The notes under the pieces were generated by a model. That model had not been told where the DNA came from, did not search any database, and worked only from the letters and a program-made list of their open reading frames with translations. The translations under genes and the position numbers were made by a program. DNA of 64,000 nucleotides from an uncultured Chloroflexia bacterium (GTDB taxonomy: Bacteria > Chloroflexota > Limnocylindria > Limnocylindrales > CSP1-4), in assembly GCA_963833225.1 (NCBI GenBank), contig CAWHXD010000007.1:256001-320000 (forward strand). The letters are read 5' to 3'. Within the stretch, counting starts at the first letter, position 1, and every line of letters begins with the position of its first letter. Shown in pieces: positions 1,597-37,780 of the stretch.

Positions 1597-3669
1597 CTAC
1601 GCCCGGACGAAGCGGTCGAACCAGTCGAGCATCCGGGTCATCCGGTCGATCCGCCGGTCGATCCGGCCCGTCGCCTGGATCCCGTGGTACTCCTCCGGGT
1701 AGACCACGTATTCCACGGTTCGTTCCAGCCAGCGCAGCGCCGCGAAGAACTGCTCGTTGTCGGCCGGCGGACAGCGCTTGTCCGCCTCGGCCTGGAGCAT
1801 CAGCAGCGGCGTGTGGACATCGGCCACGTTGCGCAGCGGTGACTGCCGCCACAGCCGGTCGATGCCCTCGGGCGTGGTCGGATCGCCCATGTGCGAGGCG
1901 CGGCAGTACTCGGGACCCGTGTCACTGTGGGCCCAGGCGGAGACCTGGTTCGTGACCCCGTTCTCCGACACGGCCGCCTTGAACCGGTCCGACGTTCCGA
2001 CCAGCCAGTTGACCATGAACCCGCCGTACGAGAGGCCAAGGGCGCCGAGACGCCCGGGATCGGCGAGGCCCAACGAGACCACGTGGTCGAGCGCGGCGTG
2101 GACATCGTCGGCGTCGGGCCCGCCCCACTCGCCAAGCTGCGGCGTGATCCACTCGGCGCCATAGGACGCCGACCCGCGGATGTTGGGCAGGACCACGCGA
2201 TAGCCGCGCGCGCAGAGCAGGACCACCTCCATGCTGGGCGCCGGTGACCACGCACCGAGCGGCCCACCGTGGACATCGACCACCGTTGGCAGCGCCTCGT
2301 CGTTCGAGGCGCCGGCCGGGGAGGCGATCCACGTCTCCACCGGTCCGCCGGGTCCGGGCGCCTCCACGCACCGCATCGACGGCCAGGCAAGCCCGCCCAC
2401 CCACGCCGATCCGATCGTGGTGACCGGGCGCAGCTCGCCCGCGACGTCATCGACCACGCACAGCTCCGGTGGACGGCTCCCGATGCTGGCGGTGACGGTC
2501 GTCCGGTCCCCCCTGGCTGCCAGCGTGCGTGCCCACGAGTCGCCCTGCGCCAGGCGCACAGGGTCGCCCGCGGGTCCGCCCGTCGCGGGGTCCACCGGGA
2601 AGCGCCACGGGTGGGTGCGACCGCGATCCGTGACCAGGGTCACGACCCCACTCCCGTCGGCCGTCCAGAACGGCCCTAGGCGCTGCTCCGCCTGCCAGCC
2701 CGTGAGATCGCCGTCCGCCCAGTCGCCAACCGGCCGATCGAGGTCCGGCGCCAGGGTCACGGCCTCCGCGGAACCGTCGGCCGGCCCGACCACGACCGTC
2801 GGCGACACGTCGTCGAAATAGTCGGGGTCGTCCACCCCGACCGCGGCCAGCCAGCGGCCGTCGGGCGAGTAGGCGGGAAAGCGAACGGGACCCGCGAGCG
2901 CAAGGACCTCATTCGGCGCCGCGTACCCCTTGCCCCGCGGAGCCGTTGCCGGAACCTCGAAGATGGATCCCCGTGGATGGAGGTCGGCGTCGGCTCGCGG
3001 ATCCGTGACGAACGCGATCGCCCGTCCGTCCGGCCGCCAGGCGATGTCGGACACGCCGCCGGCCGCGTCGGTGAGGCGGCGCGGCTTCGCTCCGTCCGAC
3101 GCCTCGACGACGTGGAGCTGCGACCGCCGGTCGAGGTACCCCTCGTAGTCGTAGCGGTAGTCGAGGACCGTGATCCGGCGCGCCATCGGCTCATCGTCCT
3201 TGGGCGCCTTGCCGACGATGAAGCGCTGGGGATCGGCCTGGGCGATGAAGGCGATCCGGCGGCCGTCGGGCGACCAGGCGGGCTCCCCGCAGGACAGCTC
3301 GCCGAGCGCCGGCGCGATGGGCTCGCCCCCGGCCAGGTCCAGGATCCGGAGCGAGGTCGGCTCCTTGTCCTTGCCGGGCGTTCCACGCGTGTAGGCGACA
3401 CGCCGGCCATCTGGCGAGATGCGGGGCCACATGTCGCGAACCGTGCCCGTGGTCAGTCGCCGGGGCTCGGGCGCGGAGGCCCCGCCGGGGCGGCCCGTCG
3501 CCAGGGGCACGAGCCAGAGATGCGAGACATAGTGATCCCCGTCCACGACCCGGCGGCTGATCACGGCAAACGAGCCGTCAGGAGCAAGGTCATGCTCCTC
3601 GACGACCACCTGGCGGCGGAGGAGCTCGGGGGTGGGGACCTGGAGGGTGCGGCGTCGGTTCTGCGGCAT
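1597..3669 (-). CDS. S9 family peptidase (acylaminoacyl/prolyl oligopeptidase-like)
   Basis: SPDG beta-propeller repeats, VHGGP, GLSYGG nucleophile, D and H of triad (DKRC, EYHG). Confidence 0.92.
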   Translation of the reverse strand: MPQNRRRTLQVPTPELLRRQVVVEEHDLAPDGSFAVISRRVVDGDHYVSHLWLVPLATGRPGGASAPEPRRLTTGTVRDMWPRISPDGRRVAYTRGTPGKDKEPTSLRILDLAGGEPIAPALGELSCGEPAWSPDGRRIAFIAQADPQRFIVGKAPKDDEPMARRITVLDYRYDYEGYLDRRSQLHVVEASDGAKPRRLTDAAGGVSDIAWRPDGRAIAFVTDPRADADLHPRGSIFEVPATAPRGKGYAAPNEVLALAGPVRFPAYSPDGRWLAAVGVDDPDYFDDVSPTVVVGPADGSAEAVTLAPDLDRPVGDWADGDLTGWQAEQRLGPFWTADGSGVVTLVTDRGRTHPWRFPVDPATGGPAGDPVRLAQGDSWARTLAARGDRTTVTASIGSRPPELCVVDDVAGELRPVTTIGSAWVGGLAWPSMRCVEAPGPGGPVETWIASPAGASNDEALPTVVDVHGGPLGAWSPAPSMEVVLLCARGYRVVLPNIRGSASYGAEWITPQLGEWGGPDADDVHAALDHVVSLGLADPGRLGALGLSYGGFMVNWLVGTSDRFKAAVSENGVTNQVSAWAHSDTGPEYCRASHMGDPTTPEGIDRLWRQSPLRNVADVHTPLLMLQAEADKRCPPADNEQFFAALRWLERTVEYVVYPEEYHGIQATGRIDRRIDRMTRMLDWFDRFVRA

Positions 3670-17804: not shown

Positions 17805-20304
17805 CACCGGCATCGTAGCCGGTGAGGGCGACGCGGGCGGGGATCTCCGGGGTCGTCGCCGCGGAGGTCCGTGGAGTCCCCGTGGTCCGGACCCGCAGCC
17901 CGTCCGGGCGCAGCCCCACCTCCACCGTCCCGTCGAGGTCCGTGCGGAGGATGCGCGCCCCGATGTCGCGCAGCCGTGCAAGGGTCGACGCGGCCGGGTG
18001 TCCGTAGTCGTTGTCCGCCCCCACCGAGACCAGCGCGAGCGTCGGCCGCAGGGCCGCGAGGAGCGGCGCACTGGTGGCGGTGGCGCTGCCATGGTGTGCA
18101 ACCTTGAGGACGTCGATGGCCGGGAGGCCGCGGGCGAGCAGCGCCGGATCCACGTCGTCCTCGGCGTCGCCCGTGAGCAGGAATCGGCGGCCGTTGGCCT
18201 CGCCGAGGAGGACGATCGAGGTGTCGTTGATCCCCCGTCCCGTGGCGGCCGGTTCCGTGGGCACGCCGGGGTCCGGCCAGAGCACCGTCAGCGAGATCTC
18301 GTCGAGGCGCAGCCGGGCACCCGTGGCCAGCGTCGCCCTCGGCGGGCCGTGCTCGAGGGCCGCATCCCAGGCCGCCCACCCTGGTCCCGGTCCGTGCATG
18401 CCGGGTTCGAACACCTGCCCAACCCGGTACCGCTCCAGCACCCGCACCAGGCCCGCGACGTGATCCTCGTGGGGATGGGTCAGCACGATGATGTCGATCC
18501 GCCGGTCCCAGGGCGGGACGCGCTGGTCCAGGGCCACCAGGAGGCGGTCCGGGTCCGGCCCGCCATCGACCAGCATGCGCGCACCGCCCCGGGTCTCGAC
18601 CAGGATCGCGTCGCCCTGTCCCACGTCGAGCATCACGAGCCGCGTGGACCGCCCGGCGACATCGGCCATCGCGAGCGTCGACAGCGCCACGACAACCGCC
18701 GCGACGCCAAGCGCCAGCCGGCTGCCGCGCGAGGCGGGGATCGGCAGGCGACCAGCCGTCGCACCGGTCCCGGCCCGGGGCGACGGTGCCTGTTGACCGG
18801 GTCGTCGCTGCCCCGGCCGCCGGCGCCGACGGGCGCGCGAAGCCCGGAGCCGCCGGATCATGCCGGGCGCCCCCAGGACCAGCACCGCGGCCATGAGCGC
18901 CGCGGCCGGCGCCGCCTCCGGCGGGATCGGCACGGCCGCGAACGGCACCCCGGCTCCCAGCCGCACGAACGCGACGATGAGGTGGAGCAGCAGCCAGGCC
19001 GGCAGGCCGAGCATCGTTGCCAGCCCGTCCGGCAGCCCGGCCATGGACAGGGCGCCGCCCCCCATCGCGACCACGCCCGCGCCCATCGCCGCCGGCACGA
19101 GCGGGACGACCGCAAGGTTGACCACCGGCGCCACCAGCGACAGGCGCCCGAACGTGACCAGCACGTCCGGCAGCGTCGCCGCCTGGGCGGCCAGCGAGAT
19201 CCCGAGCCCCTCCGCCAGCCAGCCCGGGATCCGCCCGCCACCCAACCCCGCAAACCAGCGGCCCAGCGGCGTTCCCCAGGCCAGGAGCCCGGCGGTGGCG
19301 ACCACGGACAGCCGGAATCCGGCATCGCCGATCATCGTCGGGTCGACCACCAGCATCGAGAACGCGGCGAGGGCCAGGGCCGCCGGCGCGCGTGCCGACC
19401 GCCCCGACTCCCGGGCCAGCAGGACCACCGCCGCCATCACGGCCGCCCGGACCACCGACGGCGAGGCGCCCGCGGCGAGCACATACGCGCCGATCGTGCC
19501 CCCGACCACGATCGCGACCGCGCGGCGCGACCGACCGCGCATCAGGGCGCCCACGAGACCCGCCACGATGGCGATGTTCCAGCCCGAGATGGCGACCACG
19601 TGGCTGACGCCCGCCGTCGCGAAGTCGGCAGCCAGCGCCCGATCCACGCGCTCCCGGAGGCCCACCAGGATCCCCGCGGCCAGGCCCGCCTCCGGCTCCG
19701 GGAGCGAGACCTGCAGCGCGTCACCCGCCGCGTCCCGGGCCGGCTGGAGCGACAGGCCGCTCGCCCGTTCAACGATCCCGAGCGATCGTGCGTCCAGGCT
19801 GCCCGCGGCGCCCGTGCGGCGCAGGTACTCGCCGTAGCCGTCGTCCTCGGGCGGCGGTCGCAGACGGCCGTCGACCTCCACCGTGTCACCCGCGTGGACC
19901 GCCGGGAACGATGGCAGTGTTGCCGCAACACGCACCGGCCCCGGTTCCACCTGCAGCGCGAGGCGGGCGACCTGGCTCCCGTCCCGCGGTGAGCCCACGG
20001 AGTCCACGACCGCCGTCCAGGGCCCCGGCGTGGCCGGCAGCGGCGGGACGGGGGGAGCCGGCGGACCCAGCAGCAGCCGGAGCGCGACCAGGACCGCCCC
20101 GATGCCCGCCGGCGTCAAGGGAGCGACAGCCAGCGCCCGGGGAACCGCCAGCCCGATCGACACCGCCAGCAGCCCCACGACCAGGACGCCGGCCATCGGC
20201 CCGCCCGCGTACGCGACCGCTGCCGACACGGCGGCCCCGATCGCGAGCCACGCGCTGCGCGGGAGCGCCGGGAGCGCCGGGAGCGCTGGCGCGGCCGGCT
20301 TCAC
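17329..20304 (-). CDS. comEC: ComEC/Rec2 DNA uptake channel with metallo-beta-lactamase domain; low-complexity tail overlaps HD gene
   Basis: HVVAISGWN, SPSVVRA, GFRLS, LDVGQGDA, THPHEDH, LKVAHHGS, YGHP. Confidence 0.95.
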   Translation of the reverse strand: MKPAAPALPALPALPRSAWLAIGAAVSAAVAYAGGPMAGVLVVGLLAVSIGLAVPRALAVAPLTPAGIGAVLVALRLLLGPPAPPVPPLPATPGPWTAVVDSVGSPRDGSQVARLALQVEPGPVRVAATLPSFPAVHAGDTVEVDGRLRPPPEDDGYGEYLRRTGAAGSLDARSLGIVERASGLSLQPARDAAGDALQVSLPEPEAGLAAGILVGLRERVDRALAADFATAGVSHVVAISGWNIAIVAGLVGALMRGRSRRAVAIVVGGTIGAYVLAAGASPSVVRAAVMAAVVLLARESGRSARAPAALALAAFSMLVVDPTMIGDAGFRLSVVATAGLLAWGTPLGRWFAGLGGGRIPGWLAEGLGISLAAQAATLPDVLVTFGRLSLVAPVVNLAVVPLVPAAMGAGVVAMGGGALSMAGLPDGLATMLGLPAWLLLHLIVAFVRLGAGVPFAAVPIPPEAAPAAALMAAVLVLGAPGMIRRLRASRARRRRRPGQRRPGQQAPSPRAGTGATAGRLPIPASRGSRLALGVAAVVVALSTLAMADVAGRSTRLVMLDVGQGDAILVETRGGARMLVDGGPDPDRLLVALDQRVPPWDRRIDIIVLTHPHEDHVAGLVRVLERYRVGQVFEPGMHGPGPGWAAWDAALEHGPPRATLATGARLRLDEISLTVLWPDPGVPTEPAATGRGINDTSIVLLGEANGRRFLLTGDAEDDVDPALLARGLPAIDVLKVAHHGSATATSAPLLAALRPTLALVSVGADNDYGHPAASTLARLRDIGARILRTDLDGTVEVGLRPDGLRVRTTGTPRTSAATTPEIPARVALTGYDAGDDHSDTPRGRPPAVVPGPARLVAPARVRGRGRRRLARPGDRRQRDAVRRARGRGGGAAPRRGQDPGRAGGWRPPRRGVRRVAGGAGLPEARAARAGSSREPIRRRGGHAAPGRGAARGADHRLRGQACWPADRAHGGPVRLVAPALPVGTGRAGAGRG

Positions 20305-20999
20305 GGGCCGATCGTGACGAGCGGCCGGAGCTTGTCCATCGTCGCGGCGCTCACCACCTTGCGGGCGAGCAGGTCATCGACGCTCGTGAACGGTTGCTCC
20401 TCCCGCGCCGCGATGATCTTGGCCGCCGTCACGGGCCCGATCCCGGGCAGCGTGTCCAGCGCCTCCGCTGAAGCCCGGTTGAGATCGATCGGACCCGCGC
20501 CGCCGGCCACCCCGCCGCCCTGGTCCGTGCCAGGAGCCGCTGGATCCTCTCCGCGAACGGGCACGCGGATCTTCTGGCCATCCGTGATCGACGCCGCGAG
20601 ATTGAGCTGCCGGTCCACCAGGCCCGCGTCGACCGTCGCCGCGTACCCGCCTGCCGCGTCGATCGCGTCGGCGACGCGGGCGCCCGCCGGCAGCTGGTAC
20701 ACGCCGGGGCGAGTGACCGCCCCACCGACATCCACCACGAGCATGACCGCAGGTGCCGGACTTGCCGAGCGCGTCGCGCCGAGGTCTGCCGGCATCGCGC
20801 CCAACCCATTCGCGCCGTCCACGCTGATCACCGGCTCCTCCCCGCCAGCGACCAGGACGGCCCCGACGCCGACCAGGACCGCGAGAACGGCCGCGACGAC
20901 GGCGGGCCACGGCAGGCCACCAGGCGTCGCTTGGTGATCGGGCGGGGCTTCGGGCTCAGAGGCCTCGAGGACGCGCCACGGCGCGCTGCTTGGCTCCAC
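20301..20999 (-). CDS. comEA: ComEA DNA receptor (TM + SLBB + HhH)
   Basis: VDVGGAVTRPGVYQL, LNLAA, IDLNRASAEALDTLPGIGPVTAAKII; GTG start inferred. Confidence 0.92.
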   Translation of the reverse strand: MEPSSAPWRVLEASEPEAPPDHQATPGGLPWPAVVAAVLAVLVGVGAVLVAGGEEPVISVDGANGLGAMPADLGATRSASPAPAVMLVVDVGGAVTRPGVYQLPAGARVADAIDAAGGYAATVDAGLVDRQLNLAASITDGQKIRVPVRGEDPAAPGTDQGGGVAGGAGPIDLNRASAEALDTLPGIGPVTAAKIIAAREEQPFTSVDDLLARKVVSAATMDKLRPLVTIGP

Positions 21000-21082
21000 G
21001 GGTCGGGTCGCTCCCCGGCGGGATCCGGCGGCGGGCGTGGGTGTGGATGCGGTTGCGAGCACAGGTGGAGCGCCCGTGCGGG

Positions 21083-21095
21083 AGGGGGCACGTCC
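21083..21095 (+). repeat. attL core AGGGGGCACGTCC
   Basis: Identical to 29917-29929; flanked by host arm CCCGTGCGG (21073-81) and element arm TGCGGGT (21104-10). Confidence 0.85.
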
Positions 21096-21110
21096 ACATA
21101 TAATGCGGGT

Positions 21111-22355
21111 ATGAGTACCGCCGTCGCCTACCTTCGCCGGAGCCGGGTGGACACCCGCCGCCCTGGCACCGTCTCCCACGCCGAGCAGAAGCCGCCGTCA
21201 CCGCTCTGGCCGCCCAGCATGGCGATCACGATCTAGATGTTCTCGAGGACTGGGGGCGATCGGGCCGAGACGAGAAGCTCGCCAAGCGCGACGCGTTCGC
21301 CGATCTCCGGGCCCGCGTCAAGCGTGGCGACGTGACCGCCGTCTACGCCTACGACGTGTCGCGGCTCGGGCGCTCCGTCGTGACCCTCCACCAGCTGATG
21401 ACCGAGTGCAAGGCCGCCGGCATCCCCATCCGCTGCGCGTCGGGCTACTCCCCCGACATCAGCACCGCCGAGGGGCGGCTGGTGTTCGCCAACCTCGCCG
21501 CGATGTTCCAGTACCTCGCCGAGAGCGTGCAGGAGCGGGCCGCGCGGCGCGTCGAGGAGCGGCGCGAGAAGGGGGAGCTCATGGGCCCCGCGCCCTTCGG
21601 CTACCGGCTCGTGGACGGCAAGCATGTCCCCAACCCGGCCGAGGACCTCGCCACCGTGATCGAAACGTGGCGCGCGTCCGAGAGTGTCGCGGAGGCGTGC
21701 CGGCGCCTGAAGATGCCGGGGTGCGGACCCGGTCAGGCGTCCAGTGGCTACCATCGACGCTGTACGCGATCCTCGAGCACGAGGGGCTGCGCGTCCGCAC
21801 CCTGCAACGTGGACGGCCCGTGAAACGCACCTACCGGTTCTCGCGGCTCCTGCGATGCCCGCACGACGACTCCGCGCTCGTGGGCAACGGCAAGAACGGG
21901 CTCGTGCAGTACGAGTGTCGCGCGTCGCGCCTGACCGGCGATCACCCGTACCCACGCAGCATCTCCGAGCGGCTGATCCTGCCGTGGGCGGAGACTGAAG
22001 TGGACAGGCTGCGGCTGCCGGTGGACACGGTACAGACCGCGGTGGACAACGCCGAGCGCCGGGCCATCCTCTCCGGGCGCTTGGACCGCGCCAACGAGCT
22101 CTACATCGCCGGGAGCATCCCCAAGGACCGATACGAGCGGGAGGCCGCCGCGGTGGCCGCGGAGCTCGACGGCTTGGACGCCGAGGACGAGATGATCGCG
22201 GTCCCGCCGATCGGGCCGCACGATTGGGACACTTGGGCGCCCGCGGACCTCAACCGGACACTCCGCGCCCTCTGGTCCCGCGTCGAGCTCGGGGCCGATA
22301 TGCGGCCTGTCCGTGCGGAGTGGCGCAGCCGGCCCTGTGGAGCCCGGCGTCGTGA
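21111..22355 (+). CDS. Large serine recombinase (integrase); 3-4 apparent frameshifts
   Basis: AVAYLRRS (catalytic Ser), YDVSRLGR, PFGY, recombinase domain, Zn-ribbon (LLRCPHD..YEC), coiled coil; assembled from frames of ORFs 20931, 21332 and 21406. Confidence 0.88.
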
Positions 22356-22675
22356 TCCTGCGACCGCTCGCCGTCGTGGGTTCGGCTGCCCGGTGCCCCG
22401 AGCCCACCTGTGGAGCCTGGATTGGCCGCGTCCGACGCGACCGGCGCGTCACCGAGCGTCACGGGCAGGAACCAACGCCCTATGTCGCCGAGACCTTGAT
22501 CCTCTCGACGCTCTGGCGGCCCGTCAACGGCGCTTGGCGCCTCGGCCGCCACCATGGGATGGACGAGCGGACGGTTACCTTCAGGCCGCTACCGATCGTG
22601 TGTCCCAAGTGCCACCACAAGGCCGCCGCACCGCCGCTGGTTTCGCGATTGCAGCCGAGGCCGCACACGGCGTAG
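22352..22675 (+). CDS. Small Cys-rich (CPEPTC...CPKC) protein, candidate recombination directionality factor
   Basis: GTGA overlap with inferred recombinase stop; two Cys pairs. Confidence 0.5.
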   Translation: MILRPLAVVGSAARCPEPTCGAWIGRVRRDRRVTERHGQEPTPYVAETLILSTLWRPVNGAWRLGRHHGMDERTVTFRPLPIVCPKCHHKAAAPPLVSRLQPRPHTA

Positions 22676-22772
22676 TATCTGGCTACCAACCCCAAGCGCG
22701 AGCCGACAGCGCGGCTCCACCGCTCTGCTCAACCGACAACGACGGGCAGGGTCAACGTGGAGTCGCGTTTCG

Positions 22773-22948
22773 ATGTTGTCGGAGAAGAACCCGCGCAAGG
22801 TTCGCGCCGGTCAGGCTGCGATGCGCAAGCGCTGGGGGCCGCAGCGAGTGCTGGCCTGGACCAGCTCGATCCCGTCACCCGTGAAGTGATCCTGTCCATC
22901 GTCGAGGCTCGGCGCAACGCCGCCGCTGCCGACGCCGGGCAGCAGTAA
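22773..22948 (+). CDS. Small basic protein, probably one frameshift (MLSEKNPRKVRAGQAAMRKRWGP...LDQLDPVTREVILSIVEARR)
   Basis: Two overlapping short ORFs join near 22853; TTGCAG-N18-TAGTAT promoter candidate at 22649-22678. Confidence 0.5.
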
Positions 22949-23167
22949 GGGCCGCCGTCATGCGAGCAACCGGCAGCCCTCCGTCCAAGCCTACCCCCGA
23001 CGAGTGGGAGCGGGCTAATCACGCCGCCTACATGGTCGGCGTCATCCTCCGATACCGGCACCCGGCTGGGTCGTCGCGGAGCGGTTCCGCGAACTTGAGG
23101 CCGCGGGAGAGGCCCACAACGACGCATGGTTCGGGACCGCGACGATGGTCCGCGGCTGGGACCAGAC

Positions 23168-24142
23168 GTGAGCCTCACCGAGCCCGAGTGGGTCCGGGAT
23201 GGGCCTACGATCATCCCTGAGGCCGTCACACGGCCCCGGCTGGCCGTCACCGGCTCGCACCGCCTCTCGGTCCTGCGCTGGCAGGAGCTGATGACCTCGC
23301 CGCCCGAGCCGCCGCCGGTCCTCCGGGCCGGTATCCCGGAGGTGGGCGTCACTGTCCTTGCCGGGAGCCCGAAGGTGGGTAAGACACTCTGGAGCTCCCA
23401 GACGGCGCTGGAGATCCGCAAGCCCGTCCTGCTCGTCATCGAGGAGGGCAGCATGAGCGGGATCACCTACCGGCTGGCCAGACAGGCCGCCGCCCTCGAC
23501 ATTGCCGCGCCACCCATCGCGGTTCTGCACCGTCAGCGGATCCGCCTGGACAACCGGAGCAGCGTGGACGCCCTCCGGGCCATCGTGGCGGCCGAGCGGC
23601 CCGCGCTCGTGGTCCTGGACCCGCTCAACCGGCTCCACGGGGCCGATGAGAACCGGCCCACGCAGATGACCCCGGTCATGGACGCCATGGCCGGCATCGC
23701 CTACGACTACGGGGTCGCGGTCCTGGCGATCCACCACCTGTCCAAGCCCTCCGCCGAGCGGCGCGGGGACATCTGGGACCGCTACCGCGGCGCGTCCTCG
23801 ATCCGCTCCGGCACGGACGCCAACCTCGCGCTCGACGGGTCCGGAGACCGCGTGCGGCTGAGGGGTGAATTCCGGGATGCAGAGCCGCTGTCCGAGTACC
23901 TCGAGCTCGACCGCAACACGCTGCTATTCGGGCCGGGCGACGCCCCGGAGGCGCCGACCAAGGTGGACGCCCTCGCGCTGCGCCTGTTCGTCCAGGAGCG
24001 GACGCAGGTCACGGCGGCACAGGTCATGGCCGAGTACGCCGTGTCGAAGATGACCGCCCTTCGAGCCCTTCGAGCCCTCGGCTGTGACGAGTTCCCCGGT
24101 GTCCGCGGGACCCTGACGTTCACCCTCGGAGGTGGCTCGTGA
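23168..24142 (+). CDS. AAA_25 / RepA-like SF4 helicase with possible C-terminal HTH
   Basis: Walker A GSPKVGKT, Walker B LVVLDP, IHHLSK, RGASS. Confidence 0.88.
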   Translation: MSLTEPEWVRDGPTIIPEAVTRPRLAVTGSHRLSVLRWQELMTSPPEPPPVLRAGIPEVGVTVLAGSPKVGKTLWSSQTALEIRKPVLLVIEEGSMSGITYRLARQAAALDIAAPPIAVLHRQRIRLDNRSSVDALRAIVAAERPALVVLDPLNRLHGADENRPTQMTPVMDAMAGIAYDYGVAVLAIHHLSKPSAERRGDIWDRYRGASSIRSGTDANLALDGSGDRVRLRGEFRDAEPLSEYLELDRNTLLFGPGDAPEAPTKVDALALRLFVQERTQVTAAQVMAEYAVSKMTALRALRALGCDEFPGVRGTLTFTLGGGS

Positions 24143-24146
24143 GCCT

Positions 24147-24300
24147 CCACCGTCCACCGTCTAACGACCGTATACCCACCGTCCATTGGACGCTGTCCAG
24201 GGACTGTCCCACCGTATCGTCACACGCCCCCTTTAGGGGGTGGGCTATGCGGTGGACGGTGGACGCCCGGAAGGGACAGTCCCAGAGGGACGACCGTATA
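24147..24300. repeat. Putative replication origin: iteron-like repeats around a central hairpin
   Basis: CCACCGTCC copies and inverse GGTGGACGGTGGAC; GGGACTGTCCC (24200) vs GGGACAGTCCC (24273); ACGACCGTATA x2 (24164, 24290); CCCCCTTTAGGGGG (24227-40). Confidence 0.6.
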
Positions 24301-24421
24301 GCGCGCCCGGCGAAGCCATGGGGGCTTTGGCTAACTCCGCCACCCCCGCCACCCTCCACCCGCGCCTTAGGCGACTCGCTGTGAGCCTGTCCCTTTCCCG
24401 ACCCGTTTCCCAGAGGTTGAC

Positions 24422-24730
24422 ATGACCCCACCCATCCGCCCGCCCTCGCACCTGTCCAAGCCGTCCAAGGCGCTTTACATCGATGTCATGGGCAGCTACC
24501 TGCTCGAGCCCCACCACGTGGCCCTGCTCGTCAAGGCGCTGGAGGCCCGCGACCGTGCCGACCAGGCACGCGCCGAGATTGGCCGCGGACCACTCATGGT
24601 CACCTCCCGGCTCGGCGAACAGAAGCCCCACCCGCTGCTCACCGTCGAGCGGGACGCCCGCGCCCAGTTCGGCACGCTGATGAAGCAACTCGGCCTGGAC
24701 ATCGACGGCCCGCCGTCCAACCGGAGATAG
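24422..24730 (+). CDS. Phage terminase small subunit, P27 family
   Basis: PPSHLS...EARDRADQAR...G..KPHP....ERDAR..F..L.KQLGL pattern; GAGG RBS. Confidence 0.85.
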   Translation: MTPPIRPPSHLSKPSKALYIDVMGSYLLEPHHVALLVKALEARDRADQARAEIGRGPLMVTSRLGEQKPHPLLTVERDARAQFGTLMKQLGLDIDGPPSNRR

Positions 24731-24732
24731 CC

Positions 24733-24942
24733 ATGCCCTCCCCCAAGCGCCGCCCCAAGCTGCACCGCCCGCCCCCTGCCGATCTGTCCGGCCTCGCCTA
24801 CTGGGAACTCGTGGAACTCGCCAAGCGTGGCGAGATCACCTGGTCCGACATCTCGGCCGAGACCCACCGTCAGGTCCTCGCGTCCAACGGCGGCATCGAC
24901 CCCTACGCCCACCTCCGCATCGACAGGGAGCCCCTCGCATGA
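24733..24942 (+). CDS. Hypothetical protein (69 aa)
   Basis: GGAG RBS; tight coupling with neighbours (ATGA overlap downstream). Confidence 0.6.
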   Translation: MPSPKRRPKLHRPPPADLSGLAYWELVELAKRGEITWSDISAETHRQVLASNGGIDPYAHLRIDREPLA

Positions 24943-25180
24943 ACGCCACCGCCGCCGAAATCGCCGAGGCAATCGCCAACCTGGCCGCCGCCGCCCACCA
25001 GCGGCTCGACCGCGGCGACCTGTTCGCCCTGCTGGACGATCCGGCCGCGGAGAAGCGGGTTGACGTGGACGGAGACACCTACCGGCTCACGGCCGGCGAC
25101 GTGACCCTGTGGAAGGCCCTACGGCCGCCGTCGCCGCCGCGGTCGAGATCCTGGCCGCCAAGCGCGACAAGCTGAACTAG
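24939..25180 (+). CDS. Hypothetical protein (~80 aa; probable frameshift near 25120)
   Basis: ATGA overlap; alternative frame ends AVAAAVEILAAKRDKLN*. Confidence 0.55.
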
Positions 25181-25337
25181 CCCGTTGCCGGAACGTGCGC
25201 CCTAGCGGTAACATGTTCTCGCCGCCCAGAGGGTGGCAGTCAACGGGGCAGCGCGCCCGGTGGGCCCAGAGGGCCCGTCAGGAGCAGCGCCCGCCGCCAG
25301 AGGACCGCGCCAGAGGCGAGGCCCACGAGGCAGCGGA

Positions 25338-26709
25338 ATGGCCGACCCGGCCGCCTATCTGCTGGCGATCTCGGCGCCCCTTGGAGACACCGTGACCCCG
25401 ACCAACTTCGACTACACCGCCGAGCAGCTTCGTGCGCTCGATCATGCCATCGAGGGCGCGCGTACCGTCGTCCGGCTCGATGAGATGCGAGACGACGGCA
25501 AGGAGTTGACCTTCAACCAGTCGACCGACCGCGCCGAAGCATCCGGGCGTGGAACGACGCGGCCGACATCGTGCCCAGCCTCGCCCGGTGGGAGAGCATC
25601 ACTACCGACAGCGAGGCCTTCACCCGCTCCCTGGCCACCCTCCGCATGCACCTGCAAATGGGCAAGGGCGCAGCCCTCAGGGCCGAGATGCGTGCCAACG
25701 GCGCGGCCTACCTATTCGATGGAACGCTGGACCGCCCTGGCAGCGGCAATCCCGAAGCCATCACGATGAACGACCAGATCCGCGAGCTCTTGCAGTCCGG
25801 CGAGCGGCAGCACGACTTCGAGTACCTCGAGACCGACGCCATCCGCGAAATCCGCCGTCCTTCGCCGCCGGCGAGCAGAGGGCCATTGCCAACTTCTCGG
25901 ACGCCTCATCGCTGCATGTCAACGACTTCCGGCGACAGGTGGCGATGTACGCCCGCACGGCCAGTCCGTGGCTCGGACTGGCAACCGTCGTGACCTCCGA
26001 CGCGGGCCGGCCTCTGATCGTGCCCAAGCTCACGGGTGACGGCACCGTCTACACCCCGGGTGAGGGGACTGCCGTGTCCGAGAGCTCGGCCGTGCTGGAC
26101 TCCGTCACCGTGACCCCGACCGGGTTCAAGGCGTTGACGTACATCAGCCGTGAGAGCTGGGACGATGAGGAGGTGGACCTCGGCCGCCTGCTTGCCGCCT
26201 CGCACGCGCGGGCCATCGGCCTGGCGTTCGGCTCGACCGCGACCACGGCCGTCCTGGCTGGGATCAGAACGGCGGCACCGCGTCCGGCCTCGGTGGCGAC
26301 GGTACGGCCGTCGTGCCGTTCCTGGATACGAGGACTTGATCGACCTCCAGATGGGTCGAGCAGCCCCGTACCGCGAGGGCGGTGCCTACGTGATGGCCAA
26401 CGGCGCCATCACCAAGGTCAAGAAGTTCAAGGACGGACAGGGGTCCTACCTCTGGCCGACCGGCGCCCTGCCCATCGGTGGCATGGCGTATGAGGACCCG
26501 AACCTGGCGCTCCCGCCTCGGCCACCAAGAGTGTGTGCTTCGGGGATTGGGGCGCCGCCCTGATCATCAAGGCCACGCCGATCCGGGTCGAGGTGTCGCG
26601 GGACTTCCTGTTCAACACCGACCAGGTGGCCATCAAGACCGTCCAGCGCATCGCCCTCGCGGTGCAGGACCCGGCCGCTGCCGCGTACCTCGTGAGCGCC
26701 GATACGTAG
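25338..26709 (+). CDS. HK97-fold major capsid protein; about 4 apparent frameshifts
   Basis: PLIVPKL...GEGTAVSES...ISRE..DD..VDL...A.AIG; KFKDGQGSYLW; FGDW...VEVSRDFLFNTDQVAIKTVQR. Confidence 0.82.
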
Positions 26710-26945
26710 ATCCCCCGGACCGCCAGTACCCCTCCGGCCTGTCCACCTCAATCGCCCGCACGGGTTCCGCGTCGTCGCTCCACCTCGAAGGCGCGGCGCT
26801 CTGGCAGCAGCTTCGGGTCCGGCCGGAGCGTGCGGGCTAGGCCGTCGCTGACCGGCGGCGCAACCCCCCGTGGGGAACGCAGGACCTTCGAACGAGGTAA
26901 AGTCACGTACGGTCATGACAACGATGACGAACGACCAACCCGACA

Positions 26946-27770
26946 ATGCGTGATCGGGACCGCGACAAAGTCGCGCTCCGGGGCTCCATCGTTGACTTCG
27001 GCGATCCGCCGGTTATCGAAGTGGCCCTGTCGACCGAGATCCGTCGTTTACCGCACATGAGCCTGGTCCGCATCGTGGACGCATGGCACGAGCTGTATCA
27101 GGATCGCTTCCCGGAGGTTCAGGAACAGGCTCGCTACGCGCCCCCGCCGCTAAACGCGGAGCGCGGGCAGAGGATTTGCATGATGTCCCAACTTCCCACG
27201 CCAAGGCTGTGGTTCCTCAATCAGGCTCGAACCGACCTCATTCAGCTCCAGAACGACTGGTTTGGGCGCAACTGGCGCAAGGTTGAGGGCGCCGAGGAGT
27301 ATCCACGATACGGCGTCCTCCGCGAGGCGTTCGCCCACGACCTTGGGCTACTGCGGGACTTCACCGAGCGCAATGCGCTGGGATCTCTTGTGCCCACTAC
27401 CTGTGAGATCACGTACATCAACCACATCGAACTGGCACCAGACTTGGGTGTTGAACAGGTCCTCGGCGTGCTATCGCGGGATGGTGGAGGCTTCCTCCCC
27501 AAGATGGAGGCAGGTAGCCTGTCGGCTCGCTTCGCAATTACGGACGGCGAACACGCGCGAGGTACGCTTGCCGTCAACGCCTCGACCGCCACCCGGGCTG
27601 GCGACAATGCCAGCATTCTCGCGTTGCAGGTGACGGCTCGAGGGAACGCCACCACAGGCGATGTTGCTGGCGTGCTGCGATTTTTGGATCTCGGTCACGA
27701 ATGGGTTGTGCGTGCATTTGCGGAGTTGACGACCGAGCAGATGCACCAGCGCTGGGGGAGGACGCAATGA
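26946..27770 (+). CDS. TIGR04255-like protein
   Basis: FGDPPVIEVAL, RLWFLN...LIQLQND...NWRK...YPRY, CEITYINHI, HEWVVRAFAELTT...W pattern. Confidence 0.8.
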   Translation: MRDRDRDKVALRGSIVDFGDPPVIEVALSTEIRRLPHMSLVRIVDAWHELYQDRFPEVQEQARYAPPPLNAERGQRICMMSQLPTPRLWFLNQARTDLIQLQNDWFGRNWRKVEGAEEYPRYGVLREAFAHDLGLLRDFTERNALGSLVPTTCEITYINHIELAPDLGVEQVLGVLSRDGGGFLPKMEAGSLSARFAITDGEHARGTLAVNASTATRAGDNASILALQVTARGNATTGDVAGVLRFLDLGHEWVVRAFAELTTEQMHQRWGRTQ

Positions 27771-28284
27771 CGGCTCTGCTGCCAGAGACACGGTACCTAT
27801 CGGACCACCTGGTGAATGGCCAGTTCGAGGACTTTGCCGCCACGGGGGCCGCAACGACTGGGAGTCCGGCGTCTTTCACCTATCGCCTGGGGACAGCAGA
27901 TCTTGCTCCTTACATCGCACGCCAACGAGCTGACGAGTTCGTGTCGCGCGCGATCGAGCGACTGGAGTTGATGCGCCCGAACTGGGACGGAGACAACGGG
28001 CGGGCGATCTCGCCTCGAGCCCTTGCATACGCGGCCGGGCTGGTTCCCGATCTTGCTGCCCAGGGGGTGATGATCCCAAGCCTCGTTCCGGTGTCGGATG
28101 GCGGGATCTCGATTGAGTGGCACCGCGGGGGCCGCCAAAGCTGACCCTCTACGTCCCTCCGCGGTTCCCGGACGAGGACGCCGTCGCCTACTACCTCGAC
28201 GAGCGCACTGGCAACGAGTGGGAGGAAGCGCTGCCAGCCAACGAGTCGCGCGTTGAGGCGCACTTGGCGCAGTTCCTGGAGTAG
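27767..28284 (+). CDS. Conserved hypothetical protein (NWDG...P..DGGISIEW); probable frameshift near 28138
   Basis: GGAGG RBS, ATGA coupling; second frame continues LTLYVPP...HLAQFLE*. Confidence 0.7.
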
Positions 28285-28343
28285 CCCGATTTGGAAACGT
28301 CGACGCTGACTGGCAACGCTTCCGTGAGCCAGGGGACCGAGGT

Positions 28344-28754
28344 TTGACTGAGGCGCGGGTAGAGGCTGATGCCATCCTTCTGCGCAAGATCACTCCCGAT
28401 TGGGTGGTGCCCGACAACGAAGGTGGGTTTCGTGTGTCGAGTGCGGCGTACAGAGGCAATCGGACTGCCTCGAATTTGAGGGCGTTCTCGGTGTTCGTCG
28501 AGGCCCGGCTGACAGCGTCCGGGGCTGACGCCTCCGTACTCTTGGACGCTGATCAAGGCCTCTGGAGCGTCGTGAGCATCGACATCGGGACCGTGCGCGA
28601 AGTCGACCTTGAAGCGTGGTACCGCCCCGAAGGGGTGGACCCCATCCTAATTGAAGCCCACGCAGAGGTTGAAGGATCCATCAGCACGAAGAAGGCGTCG
28701 ACACTGGCTCGCAAGTCGCGACAGGTGATTTGGCGAGGGTCGTCGTCAGCGTGA
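28344..28754 (+). CDS. Putative ADP-ribosyltransferase-fold toxin-like protein
   Basis: LLRKI.P.W...RVSSAAY...FSVF...V.I..G.VR...AHAEV.G pattern; fold assignment is inference. Confidence 0.55.
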   Translation: MTEARVEADAILLRKITPDWVVPDNEGGFRVSSAAYRGNRTASNLRAFSVFVEARLTASGADASVLLDADQGLWSVVSIDIGTVREVDLEAWYRPEGVDPILIEAHAEVEGSISTKKASTLARKSRQVIWRGSSSA

Positions 28755-28806
28755 GTGCTGGGTGCCATATCCCGCCCGCTTGCCAGTTCGCGATTGTCCT
28801 CCGGGC

Positions 28807-29055
28807 CTACGAGGGCGTTCCACCCTCGCGGATCAGCCGAAGGCACCGAGCCAGTTCCCGGATGACCCCCAGCTCGGTCGGGGCAATGGCCGTCCACTCC
28901 TGCGACCGAGCGCCCGCCTGAGCCCACTCTCGCGGATCGAAAGCGTACTGCTCCCACACATTCCGCCCCTCGTCGTAGGACGGCCGGCCCACGAACCAGC
29001 CCGGAGGCTTCGCTTCGTAGAGCTCGCTCCAGGCGGCCTCTAGGTCGGTGGGCAT
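28807..29055 (-). CDS. Hypothetical protein (82 aa), leaderless
   Basis: TACCAT 7 nt upstream of ATG; protein-like, Trp-rich composition. Confidence 0.6.
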   Translation of the reverse strand: MPTDLEAAWSELYEAKPPGWFVGRPSYDEGRNVWEQYAFDPREWAQAGARSQEWTAIAPTELGVIRELARCLRLIREGGTPS

Positions 29056-29100
29056 GGGGCCGATGGTACGGCTATGGCGGCCTTGCGGATCAGTGGTCTG

Positions 29101-29772
29101 CTACTCGCCTGTCCTTTGGGCCATCGAGACCGCGAGCGCGAGGACCGCGACGACTGCACCTGCCACCAGTATCCACAGTCCATACCCCACCGAGGCGCGG
29201 GTGCTCTCACTGCTGGCATCTATGAGGCGGTTCGACATATTGACTAGGTCGTACGCGGACAGCGCGACGAGCACCAGGGCGCCTAGCAGTGCCAGCGGAC
29301 GGCGACGGCGGAAGCCGGTCGCCAACGGAAACGCAAGAACGGCAACCAGCACCGCAAGCCAAAGAGTCAGGACGCCGTCGCCGTCCGTGCCGGCGATAGA
29401 GAAACTGCCAAGACCGCTCTGCGCGCTGGCCCACGGCAGGACACTGCCGACTGCAGCCACAACCGCAGCACCAGCAGCCACATAGCCAAGTTGCGTCGAG
29501 GCTTGGCGAGCGAGCGTGGCGGCTACCGGATCGACCGGGACGGTCCGTATGCGGCCCCAGCTCAGGATCGCGTCCCCACCCAGCCTGTCGAGGACGGCTT
29601 CGCCAATGTTGTCGAGCGGCACCCGAATTTCGTCGCCACTCTTTGTGGACCGGATGATGACCACGCCCGGCTCGAGACGCAGCACCTCGCCACGAGTGCC
29701 GGTCGCTGGTGTCGGAACCTTGTACTTGATGCGAACACGTTGACCCGTCCGTAACTCCGGAAGGCCTGTCAT
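29101..29772 (-). CDS. Membrane protein: N-terminal SH3/KOW-like beta domain + 4 TM helices
   Basis: AAGGAG RBS; LRTGQRVRI...RGEVL; four hydrophobic segments (LPW, GYGLW). Confidence 0.7.
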   Translation of the reverse strand: MTGLPELRTGQRVRIKYKVPTPATGTRGEVLRLEPGVVIIRSTKSGDEIRVPLDNIGEAVLDRLGGDAILSWGRIRTVPVDPVAATLARQASTQLGYVAAGAAVVAAVGSVLPWASAQSGLGSFSIAGTDGDGVLTLWLAVLVAVLAFPLATGFRRRRPLALLGALVLVALSAYDLVNMSNRLIDASSESTRASVGYGLWILVAGAVVAVLALAVSMAQRTGE

Positions 29773-29916
29773 CCCATGCTCCTTTGACACCTCGGTCTTC
29801 GCGACCGGCTCGACGGGTGGTTGCCTGTGAGGCCAGCCTACGCGGATCGCGGCGATGCCGAAGCGTTCGGGCGGGGTCTCCTTCCATGCGCCCGATGCGT
29901 GACCCGCAAAGTTGAC

Positions 29917-29929
29917 AGGGGGCACGTCC
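29917..29929 (+). repeat. attR core AGGGGGCACGTCC
   Basis: Identical to 21083-21095; element arm ACCCGCA (29902-08), host arm CCGCACGGG (29932-40). Confidence 0.85.
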
Positions 29930-30052
29930 TTCCGCACGGGTGTCCGGTTCAAACCCTATCCGCCGCCACTTATCTGCCACTTACGCGGAGGGTGGTACTG
30001 GGCGCTCCCGCGGGAGTCAGGCTAGGATCGGCCCCCGACACCGAGGAGCCGA

Positions 30053-30679
30053 ATGGTCGAGGATCCCTTCCCGCGCGAGCGCGTTGCCGCCACCCTGCGC
30101 CGGATGCCCGCGTACCTGAAGCTCGCCTGGCGTCTGGGCCGTGATCCGCTGCTCAGCCGCGTGCGGCGGACGGCCATCGTCGCGGCGGCCGGCTACCTCG
30201 CCTCGCCCATCGACCTCGTCCCCGGGGTCATCCCGCTCCTTGGGCAGCTCGACGACATCGCGGTCGTGCTGGCCACCCTGCGGTTCGCGCTCGCGGGGCT
30301 CGACGCGGAGCGACGCCACATGCATCTCGAGGCTGTGGGGCTTGGTGACGACAACCTGAACGAGGACCTGCGGACGGTGGCGGTGACGAGCGCCTGGCTG
30401 GTCCGCGCCGGCGCGAGGACCACGGGCCGGGCCGTGGTGCGGGGTGGGAGGCTGGCCGCGCGCGGCGCGAAGGTGGCCGGCAGGGCGTCGATCAGCCTTG
30501 CCTCGGCAACCCGGCGGGCGACGTCGAGGGCGACGCCGGTGGTGAGGGATGCGGCCGGGCGGGGAGTGGGAGCCGCGAAAGGGCTGGCGTCGCACCGCGC
30601 GAGCCGTGCCCTCGAGGACGAGCAGCTCGCCGTCGACGTGGACGATGCCCCCGGCGCGGAGGAGCCGCCGACGGCGTAG
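30053..30679 (+). CDS. YkvA/DUF1232 family protein
   Basis: YLASPIDLVPGVIPLLGQLDD; GAGGAG RBS. Confidence 0.88.
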   Translation: MVEDPFPRERVAATLRRMPAYLKLAWRLGRDPLLSRVRRTAIVAAAGYLASPIDLVPGVIPLLGQLDDIAVVLATLRFALAGLDAERRHMHLEAVGLGDDNLNEDLRTVAVTSAWLVRAGARTTGRAVVRGGRLAARGAKVAGRASISLASATRRATSRATPVVRDAAGRGVGAAKGLASHRASRALEDEQLAVDVDDAPGAEEPPTA

Positions 30680-33287: not shown

Positions 33288-34868
33288 GAGCATGTGAAGT
33301 AATCGCGCCGTTGGGGATTCCCAAGCGGGACCGGCGCAGTCACGCTCGACGACATGGACGACACGCTGTTCGATCTCCCGCCCATCGAACCCGCTGCCAC
33401 TGTTGACGAGGTCCGGGCGCGCCCGAGGGTCCAGCGCCCGAACCGGAACCAGGTCGAGCTGCGGCCGGTCGACCTCGAGGGCCTGCTGTCCGCGGACCAT
33501 CGGGCGCGCCTCGTGTGGGCGTTCGTCGAGGGCCTCGATCTCGAACCGCTGTACGGGCGGATCCGTGCGCTCGAGGGCGGGGCCGGGCGGCCGCCGATCG
33601 ATCCCGCGATCCTGACCGCCCTGTGGCTGTACGCCACCCTCGAGGGGGTCGGCTCGGCCCGGGCGCTCGAACGCCTGTGCGATGCGCATGACGCGTACCG
33701 CTGGATCTGCGGCGGGGTCCCGGTCAACTACCACACCCTGGCCGACTTCCGCGTCGGCGACGGCGATCTGTTCGACCGCCTGCTCACCGAGGGCGTGGCC
33801 GCGCTGATCGCCGACGGCGCGGTCAGTCTCAACCGCGTCGCCCAGGACGGGATGCGGGTCCGGGCTTCGGCAGGTGTGGGCTCGTTCCGCGGGCGGGATG
33901 CCCTCGAGGTTGCCCGCGCCGAGGCTGAGGCCCAGGTGGCGGCGCTGCGGGCCGAGCTCGAGACCGACCCCGAGGCGACCTCCCGGCGCATCGCCGCGGC
34001 GCGCGAGCGGGCGGCACGCGAGCGGGCCGAGCGCGTCCGCCGGGCCCTCGAGCGGCTGCCCGAGCTCGAGGCCCGCCGCGCGAAGCCGACCGCCAACCGC
34101 CGGCCGTCCAAGCCGCCAGAGGCCTCGACGACCGATCCCGAGGCGCGCTTCATGGCGTTCCCCGACGGCGGCGCCCGGCCTGCCTGGAACGTCCAGTTCG
34201 CCACCGACACCGCGACCCAGGTGATCGTCGGACTCGAGGCGGACGACCGGTATGACAACGAGGCCCTGGGTCCGATGGTCGACCAGATCCGCACCCGTTA
34301 CGGACGGGCGCCCACCGAGCACCTCGTCGACAAGGGGTTCCGGAACTTCACCGAGCTCGTGCGGCTGGCCGAACCTCCCTGCGGCACCACGCTGTTCATG
34401 CCCGTCCCCAAGCCCCGCGGCCGCAGCACCCGGGATCGCCACCGGCCACTCCGGACCGACCCGCAGGCGGTTGCCGAGTGGCGGGTCCGGATGGGGACCC
34501 CCAAGGCGAAAGCGATCGCGAAGGAACGCGCGTCGACCGCCGAGTGCGTCAACGCGATCGCCCGCAACCGGGGGCTGCGCGCGTTCGGGGTCCGGGGTCG
34601 CACCAAGGTCAGGGCCGTCATCGTCTGGTTCGCCCTCGCCCACAACCTGATGCGGACACTCGCCCTGCGAGCCGCAGCCCAGGCCACCTGATCCAGGGGC
34701 GACGCCCCAGGCGCCGGGTGTCAAAGGGCTGGTCCACCGACCATCGCTGGGTCGATCCTGCCCCGGAGCCACCGGGACATCCAGCCTGCCAGGCGCCCAT
34801 GCTCCTGTCTGGCTGATCGGATCCCGCTGGACCACGCGCAGGCTCGAACGGGAATGCTTCACAGGCTC
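33288..34868 (+). mobile_element. IS1182-family insertion sequence
   Basis: Imperfect terminal IRs GAGCATGTGAAGTAATC / GAATGCTTCACAGGCTC enclosing a transposase. Confidence 0.85.
33354..34691 (+). CDS. IS1182-family DDE transposase
   Basis: DHRAR.VW..VE.LDL, GRPPIDP, YRWICGG..VNYHTL.DFR, DGMRVRASA, STTDPEAR.M, LVDKGF, AHNL. Confidence 0.92.
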   Translation: MDDTLFDLPPIEPAATVDEVRARPRVQRPNRNQVELRPVDLEGLLSADHRARLVWAFVEGLDLEPLYGRIRALEGGAGRPPIDPAILTALWLYATLEGVGSARALERLCDAHDAYRWICGGVPVNYHTLADFRVGDGDLFDRLLTEGVAALIADGAVSLNRVAQDGMRVRASAGVGSFRGRDALEVARAEAEAQVAALRAELETDPEATSRRIAAARERAARERAERVRRALERLPELEARRAKPTANRRPSKPPEASTTDPEARFMAFPDGGARPAWNVQFATDTATQVIVGLEADDRYDNEALGPMVDQIRTRYGRAPTEHLVDKGFRNFTELVRLAEPPCGTTLFMPVPKPRGRSTRDRHRPLRTDPQAVAEWRVRMGTPKAKAIAKERASTAECVNAIARNRGLRAFGVRGRTKVRAVIVWFALAHNLMRTLALRAAAQAT

Positions 34869-35044: not shown

Positions 35045-37624
<2,580 letters not shown>

Positions 37625-37644
37625 GGTCGGGTCCTGCCTCCGAT

Positions 37645-37679
37645 AGAAACGAAACCCCCCGCCGGTCCCGGCGAGGGGT
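37645..37679 (-). terminator. Intrinsic terminator after tRNA-Ala
   Basis: ACCCCTCGCCGG/CCGGCGGGGGGT stem followed by TTCGTTTCT on the minus strand. Confidence 0.65.
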
Positions 37680-37704: not shown

Positions 37705-37780
37705 TGGTGGAGCTACGGGGATTCGAACCCCGGACCTTCTGAATGCCATTCAGACGCTCTCCCAGCTGAGCTATAGCCCC
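37705..37780 (-). tRNA. tRNA-Ala (GGC)
   Basis: GGGGCTATAGCTCAGCTGGGAGAGCG-TCTGA-ATGGCAT-TCAGA-AGGTCCGGGGTTCGAATCCCCGTAGCTCCACCA, 76 nt with encoded CCA. Confidence 0.98.

Follow-up and report, generated by a model that had tools for sequence, protein, structure and literature searches.

The attachment site attP of a serine-integrase element appears to lie on the promoter of the integrase gene itself, so that an excised or incoming circle would rebuild the -35 hexamer of this promoter and integration would dismantle it. Judged from the arrangement of the sequence, this reading has about an even chance of being correct. The element occupies positions 21083-29929 (8.8 kb, of lower GC content and bounded by a repeat) of the window, as the whole 64-kb stretch of DNA analyzed is called here. 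In the integrated state the integrase gene has a perfect -10 hexamer directly before it and no -35, and a perfect -35 hexamer faces outward from the distal end of the element; when the ends are joined, the two hexamers stand 15 bp apart. Overall, the element is a plausible, probable further case of a known principle, the junction promoter, with its function predicted.

Integrase Gene and Attachment Sites

The integrase is encoded at the left end of the element, where its start codon lies 16 nt from the repeat. The gene, the attachment sites and the two hexamers are listed below; L001 and L002 are loci that carry related elements.

21111..22355, + strand: large serine integrase of about 414 codons (Pfam Resolvase, phrog_95, homologue alignment)
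21083..21095, + strand: attL copy of the 13-bp common core, AGGGGGCACGTCC (exact repeat; homology with the left flank of L001 stops inside it)
29917..29929, + strand: attR copy of the 13-bp common core (exact repeat; GC step on the right)
21073..21081, no strand: B arm of attB, CCCGTGCGG (dyad partner of 29932-29940)
29932..29940, no strand: B' arm of attB, CCGCACGGG (dyad partner of 21073-21081)
29902..29908, no strand: P-arm outer motif of attP, ACCCGCA (inverted match to 21104-21110)
21104..21110, no strand: P'-arm outer motif of attP, TGCGGGT (shares bases with the end of the -10 and with the discriminator)
29912..29917, + strand: -35 hexamer TTGACA (read from the sequence; no -10 after it when integrated)
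21099..21104, + strand: -10 hexamer TATAAT in leaderless geometry (unique in the window; 6-nt distance shared with L001 and L002)

Several features place the protein among the large serine integrases. Its N-terminus, AYLRRS, aligns with homologues and belongs to a resolvase-type catalytic domain with the serine motif (Pfam PF00239, Resolvase, E=5.3e-18). The phrog_95 integrase family matches both halves of the protein, and 390 homologues are found at E<=1e-3, mostly of 400-440 residues. The C-terminal recombinase, zinc-ribbon and coiled-coil region of such enzymes is present (phrog_95 positions 361-561, E=2e-10), with conserved Cys and His columns in the homologue alignment; the Pfam Recombinase profile goes undetected in the window integrase and is detected in the L001 homologue.

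The exact 13-bp direct repeat AGGGGGCACGTCC occurs at 21083-21095 and 29917-29929, and its flanks carry perfect 9-bp inverted arms. In the reconstructed attB these arms are 16 nt apart, with the centre between C and A (21089/21090), a dyad layout of the kind expected for a serine integrase. From this centre the outer motifs of attP lie at 15 nt (ACCCGCA) and 14 nt (TGCGGGT). Both attB and attP thus have the short core and the inverted half-sites of a large serine integrase. On this layout attP overlaps the integrase promoter, with the crossover point lying between the -35 and -10 positions.

Promoter Hexamers and the Rebuilt Junction

The initial annotation described a TATAAT 6 nt before the integrase ATG, the lack of a -35 in the integrated state and a perfect TTGACA running into attR, and all three observations hold. 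TATAAT (21099-21104) is followed by GCGGGT (21105-21110) and by the ATG (21111-21113). It is the single TATAAT on either strand of the 64-kb window (shuffles give a mean of 0.53 and at least one copy in 38/100), and its non-random feature is its placement, with the last T at -7 from the A of ATG. This is the textbook distance for a transcript that begins at the start codon, that is, a leaderless one. Upstream of TATAAT, at spacings of 15-19 bp, the integrated sequence contains no -35 (best match 2/6), and a standard promoter scan of both integrated ends returns 0 sites.

At the other end, TTGACA (29912-29917, +) abuts the right copy of the repeat, its final A being the first base of that copy, and no -10 lies downstream of it in the integrated state. 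A hand comparison with the P' arm finds no symmetric counterpart (4/12 bases match); the hexamer is therefore not explained by integrase recognition of a half-site alone. A second TTGACA (29784-29789, +) lies within the element, 128 nt from its right end and a short way upstream of the divergent start of a membrane-protein gene (29769, -), with no matching -10 after it.

When 29912-29929 is joined to 21096-21113 through the repeat, the junction contains two perfect hexamers with a 15-bp spacer, the value originally read. The usual spacing of promoter hexamers is 16-18 bp. Because 15 bp falls outside this range, two bases short of the ideal, the junction as read is not a consensus promoter, and the usual scan criteria would miss it. 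The claim that excision creates a consensus promoter thus holds for the hexamers and, as read, not for their spacing. Compared with a hybrid promoter in the strict sense, the element has the -10 at its recombinase-proximal end, no -35 when integrated and an outward-facing -35 at its distal end, with the boxes at 15 bp rather than 16-18 bp.

Related Elements

One search of genome contigs matched 19 stretches and led to 5 confirmed loci. Two of them (L004, L005) match over only 31-39 residues and were left out, leaving L001, L002 and L003 as the informative loci. Those of L002 and L003 end 1-1.5 kb after the integrase, and that of L001 ends before its attR; the B' arm of the window has 0 matches in the L001 locus, where GC stays low up to the locus end.

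L001 (MAG contig CAVYIV010000020.1) encodes an intact 410-residue integrase and, as in the window, the element is directly beside comEC-comEA. Its left flank resembles the flank in the window up to GGGGGCAC and then diverges, and the fall in GC coincides with the end of the flank homology. With a related element at the same site, the left boundary is confirmed. MAFFT pairs the core of the window with an upstream GGGGCACC in L001 (3478-3485, 35 nt upstream); this pairing is not preferred, and the L001 core is placed at 3512-3519 because 20/23 bases of the B arm match there by hand. Under either alignment the L001 promoter is inside the element, where TTGACA (3522-3527), a 17-bp spacer, TACGAT (3545-3550) and 6 nt precede the ATG (3557). 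This promoter is complete in cis and unsplit by integration. L001 therefore resembles the window element in its attB upstream of comEA, in the leaderless placement of its -10 and in its integrase (46% identical over the C-terminal half), but differs in having its -35 within the element (17-bp spacer), in being longer (more than 11 kb) and in carrying a Prim-Pol/DUF3987 replication module.

The two remaining elements occupy other sites. L002 has TACCAT 6 nt before the ATG, and its -35 position falls in a truncated AsnC-type host gene with a match of at most 1/6. L003 has a perfect TATAAT 33 nt before the ATG, together with a ribosome-binding site; this TATAAT is only 15 nt from the start codon of the host pheT, and the -35 position is host DNA with a match of at most 3/6. 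As to targets, the L002 integrase has a regulator gene of AsnC/Lrp type as its insertion site (L002 9152-9373), and beside it just the C-terminal domain of this regulator is left; the L003 integrase sits directly before the start codon of pheT (L003 3594-3651), in the place expected for pheS.

The leaderless placement of the -10 (TANNNT 6 nt before ATG) is found in 2/3 relatives, L001 and L002, and 3/4 elements, that of the window included, have their crossover between the -35 and -10 positions. The geometry of the -10 fits a leaderless transcript and recurs in relatives. Conservation of the split hexamers among homologues had been proposed as a check on the switch, and the integrase-side ends of L001-L003, which bear on the -10 half, show that the -10 is conserved and that the promoter of L001 is undivided. 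L001 is the only relative at the same attB, and with its promoter whole, splitting is not universal in the family. The same promoter, with TTGACA at 17 bp, shows that the integrase family does use a canonical -35.

Proposed Control of the Integrase

In the integrated state the integrase gene would keep only its perfect -10, placed for a leaderless transcript starting at the A of ATG, with host DNA at the -35 position. In an excised circle, or in a newly delivered circular copy, the right end would supply the perfect TTGACA, and transcription of the integrase would be highest when the element needs to integrate. Integration would then swap the -35 for host DNA, dismantling the promoter and leaving the -10 only. 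We infer that the junction would be more active than attL despite its 15-bp spacer; with such a spacer, the gain could be small. The attP half-sites would span from about 29902 to 21113, and because a bound integrase dimer would sit over both hexamers and the start point, integrase bound at attP could plausibly repress its own gene.

Many promoters of high-GC Gram-positive bacteria work from a -10 alone, and the perfect TATAAT might for this reason give similar expression in both states. There would then be no switch: leaderless mRNA would be made from the -10 in the circle as in the chromosome, and the TTGACA would be a chance hexamer. The short spacer is in keeping with this reading, as are L002 and L003, which show a -10 without a -35 when integrated. 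Nor is TTGACA rare: the window has 11 copies against a shuffle mean of 9.6 (a density of about 8.6e-5 for each position and strand), and the 8.8-kb element has 4. However, the chance of finding it at any of five spacings (15-19 bp) is about 4e-4, or about 1e-3 at the density of the element itself; L001 shows the family using TTGACA at 17 bp; and the TTGACA at the right end is an orphan, without a -10 of its own in the integrated state. Expression that does not respond to excision is accordingly considered possible but somewhat unlikely.

The preferred reading, in which the junction assembles the promoter, can be extended to the family, although we hold the extension to be doubtful. In this family of serine integrases of roughly 410 residues, the crossover would have moved through the integrase promoter by lineage, being upstream of the -35 in L001 and between the boxes in the window and probably in L002 and L003. 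Some attP sites would now act as sensors of the recombination state, with the integrase on only when the element is free. In the window and in L001, where the insertion would also separate comEA-comEC from the region upstream of them, excision would turn on the integrase and restore the DNA-uptake genes in one step.

Spacer Length and Assembly Errors

The 15-bp spacer depends on the count of a G-run in the core, and the assembly contains errors. The leuS gene (35048-37678, -) switches between three reading frames, at breaks near 36440, 35970 and 35900, and its pieces match consecutive parts of solved LeuRS (residues 2-359, 380-524 and then the anticodon domain). Because an essential gene shows three frame breaks, the assembly is taken to carry indel errors, roughly one per kilobase across the window; similar breaks appear to be present in the capsid gene of the element and in several host genes.

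The integrase frame is likewise broken three times as read (near 21191, 21709 and 22327), and the gene does not have the uninterrupted reading frame of a large serine recombinase. Each break looks like one missing base; that at 22327 was placed from the conserved C-terminus of the homologues, and the stop codon lies at 22353-22355. Since leuS, which is essential, shows the same kind of breakage in this window, an assembly error is more likely and the integrase gene is probably not dead. If the breaks were real, the element would be dead. A predicted protein of 225 residues, P0002, is 96% identical to part of the integrase and continues via two other frames into a small Cys-rich open reading frame. 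This pattern points to a near-identical element elsewhere, with its frame breaks at different places.

The same errors raise the question of whether the G-run is undercounted, in which case the true spacer would be 16-17 bp and the junction a near-consensus promoter. The breaks in leuS and in the integrase would allow this, and six-G runs are scarce in the window (2 of six vs. 50 of five, compared with 10 of six vs. 50 of five for C), which may be a strand-specific base-calling artefact or chance. Against an undercount, no located frame break falls in a long homopolymer, both cores of the window and the host-derived core of the independent L001 assembly read five Gs, and only a run of five Gs gives the attB dyad an even centre of 16 nt. 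An undercounted run is thus rather improbable. The short 15-bp spacer is probably real, since three copies of the core read five Gs and the symmetry of attB fits. The earlier suggestion that an additional G would align the centre of attP with the CA at the centre of attB fails, as the distances to the outer motifs would become 16 and 14, which is less symmetric.

Boundaries of the Element and Host Flanks

Taken by itself, the 13-bp repeat is weak to modest evidence for att sites, because 5/300 pairs share a 13-mer when 300-nt segments of the window are matched at random with 400-nt ones. GC content is 0.62-0.72 within the element and 0.74-0.78 outside, and just right of attR it climbs from about 0.65 to 0.74. 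Together, the repeat, the 9-bp dyad arms, the GC steps at both ends and the insertion of L001 at the same site show that the two copies are real att sites of a serine-integrase element, as originally proposed. It is highly improbable that the repeat is coincidental, that the element ends elsewhere and that the junction never forms: the frequency of shared 13-mers and the fact that no empty site was seen leave some room for this, but it is countered by the perfect dyad that the two flanks form, by the GC steps, by the element that L001 carries at this site, where the homology stops within the core, and by the integrase start only 16 nt from the repeat.

Two candidate targets were rejected. A tRNA or other RNA gene is ruled out, as none is present at either end (ARAGORN; Rfam); the only tRNA that ARAGORN finds in the window is at 37708-37780. 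The comEA coding frame is open across the site, but the GC3 phase is lost above about 20990 and a conserved block falls in one frame in the window and in another in L001. For these two reasons attB is placed in the region upstream of comEA. The flanking host genes are as follows.

20304..20999, - strand: host comEA (Pfam HHH_3 and SLBB; TIGR01259; comparison with L001)
30053..30676, + strand: host DUF1232 gene in the right flank (PF06803, E=4.8e-13)

The probable start of comEA is a GTG at 20999, with a GGAG ribosome-binding site that is conserved in L001. The element is located about 85 nt upstream of this start, and L001 (3403-3520) has its element at the same place before comEA. Between the start and the core (20999-21095) there is no TANNNT, and a candidate promoter, GTGGCA-16-TAGGGT, is found on the minus strand just right of attR (29930-30052); the insertion therefore probably cuts comEA-comEC off from its promoter. 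Prophages are known that switch competence genes by excision, and the insertion before comEA recalls these. Further to the right, 3.4 kb from the element, a transposase gene (33303-34688, +; DUF772 and DDE_Tnp_1_6) is found among host genes.

Make-up of the Island

Besides the integrase, the following genes were recognized in the element.

22313..22672, + strand: small open reading frame with two Cys pairs, zinc-ribbon-like (GC3 phase; also in P0002)
23126..24139, + strand: replication ATPase, AAA_25, DnaB/primase-helicase-like (PF13481, E=1.3e-21; PHROGs primase/helicase families)
24422..24727, + strand: small terminase subunit, P27 family (PF05119, E=1.1e-6; phrog_83; TIGR01558)
25571..26560, + strand: HK97-type major capsid gene in at least two frames (PF05065, TIGR01554)
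26946..27767, + strand: TIGR04255-family protein, cargo (E=1.5e-10)
29104..29769, - strand: membrane protein with hydrophobic segments (translation; GC3 phase)

The match of the small terminase to TIGR01558 (E=2.5e-8, 33.9 bits) is under the curated cutoff of 45.6 bits. In the capsid gene, PF05065 and TIGR01554 match consecutive parts of the profiles in two overlapping frames, and the GC3 phase switches. In the circular form, the leftward membrane-protein gene and the integrase gene point away from each other on either side of attP; neither the membrane-protein gene nor the small Cys-rich open reading frame has a family match in Pfam, PHROGs or the TIGR profiles.

Three profile searches covered 45, 29 and 31 open reading frames, and these gave no match to a large terminase, portal, tail or lysis family. 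Because many of the open reading frames have no match at all, this absence is weak evidence. The element has the hallmarks of a phage satellite (PICI or capsid-forming PICI-like): it is a small island with an integrase at its end and a replication module of its own, and it carries some packaging and head genes without a full virion or lysis set. It therefore looks like a phage satellite, and the identical cores at both ends make it look like a complete small island of this kind rather than a prophage remnant.

No close relative of the element is present in the phage and plasmid collections searched. Megablast of the element against both collections and tblastn of the C-terminal half of the integrase against phages return nothing, and tblastn with the homologue P0024 finds distant matches only (at most 34% identity, mostly in the catalytic domain; 185 phage and 471 plasmid records).

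Comparison with Known Junction Promoters

Bertani is said to have described "split-operon" control of the phage P2 integrase. Literature searches on split-operon control of prophage int, and on a serine integrase attP promoter in connection with leaderless transcription and excision, found no paper.

The initial annotation cited circles of insertion sequences as the precedent, and this holds for IS3, IS21, IS30 and IS110. In the minicircles of IS3, IS21, IS30 and IS110/IS1111, one end provides the -35 and the other the -10 of a promoter, Pjunc, which raises transposase expression only on the circle, the boxes being "at the proper distance" (excerpted text of PMC12288879). According to the same excerpt, not every IS junction forms a promoter, ISPpu9 being an example (PMC12288879). 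The window element is alike in that its -35 and -10 come from opposite ends. The insertion sequences differ in using DDE/DEDD transposases and abutted inverted repeats, whereas the window element has a serine integrase acting on attP, and their boxes are properly spaced, whereas the distance here is short by one to two bases.

In two integrative and conjugative elements, the integrase is driven from a promoter that lies at the far end and points outward, and only once the ends have been joined: Pcirc in ICEclc (excerpt of PMC5812530) and P3'end in ICEKp1, after circularisation (excerpt of PMC13023037). This arrangement is thought to favor reintegration (PMC5812530, PMC13023037, in the same excerpts). 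The window element would likewise have its integrase activated from the far end only after joining. In contrast, ICEclc and ICEKp1 move a whole promoter upstream of the integrase, whereas the window element would assemble one from two halves; they are also large conjugative elements with tyrosine integrases and tRNA-gene targets.

The principle is thus already established (Tn4451, ICEclc, ICEKp1, IS minicircles), and no new question is opened. If the junction is active, the element would be a clean case of it in which a phage-like island of a high-GC bacterium has a serine integrase gene whose promoter is assembled and dismantled by the recombination that its own product catalyses. The integrase would then be produced when the element arrives and shut off once it has integrated, no dedicated regulator being needed, and the arrangement would also offer a compact design for engineered reporters of the recombination state.

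The closest known case appears to be the TnpX system of Tn4451/Tn4453. Lyras and Rood reportedly described in 2000 that the circular form of these elements creates a promoter for the recombinase at the joint, with the -35 and the -10 said to come from opposite ends. TnpX resembles the window integrase in class, both being large serine recombinases, and in having its gene at an end of the element. Unlike the window element, a site-specific phage-like island in a high-GC host, Tn4451/Tn4453 are clostridial mobilisable transposons with a 2-bp target; the window element is further set apart by its 15-bp spacer. On these comparisons, Tn4451/TnpX, ICEclc and ICEKp1 are closer precedents for the window element than the IS circles named initially.
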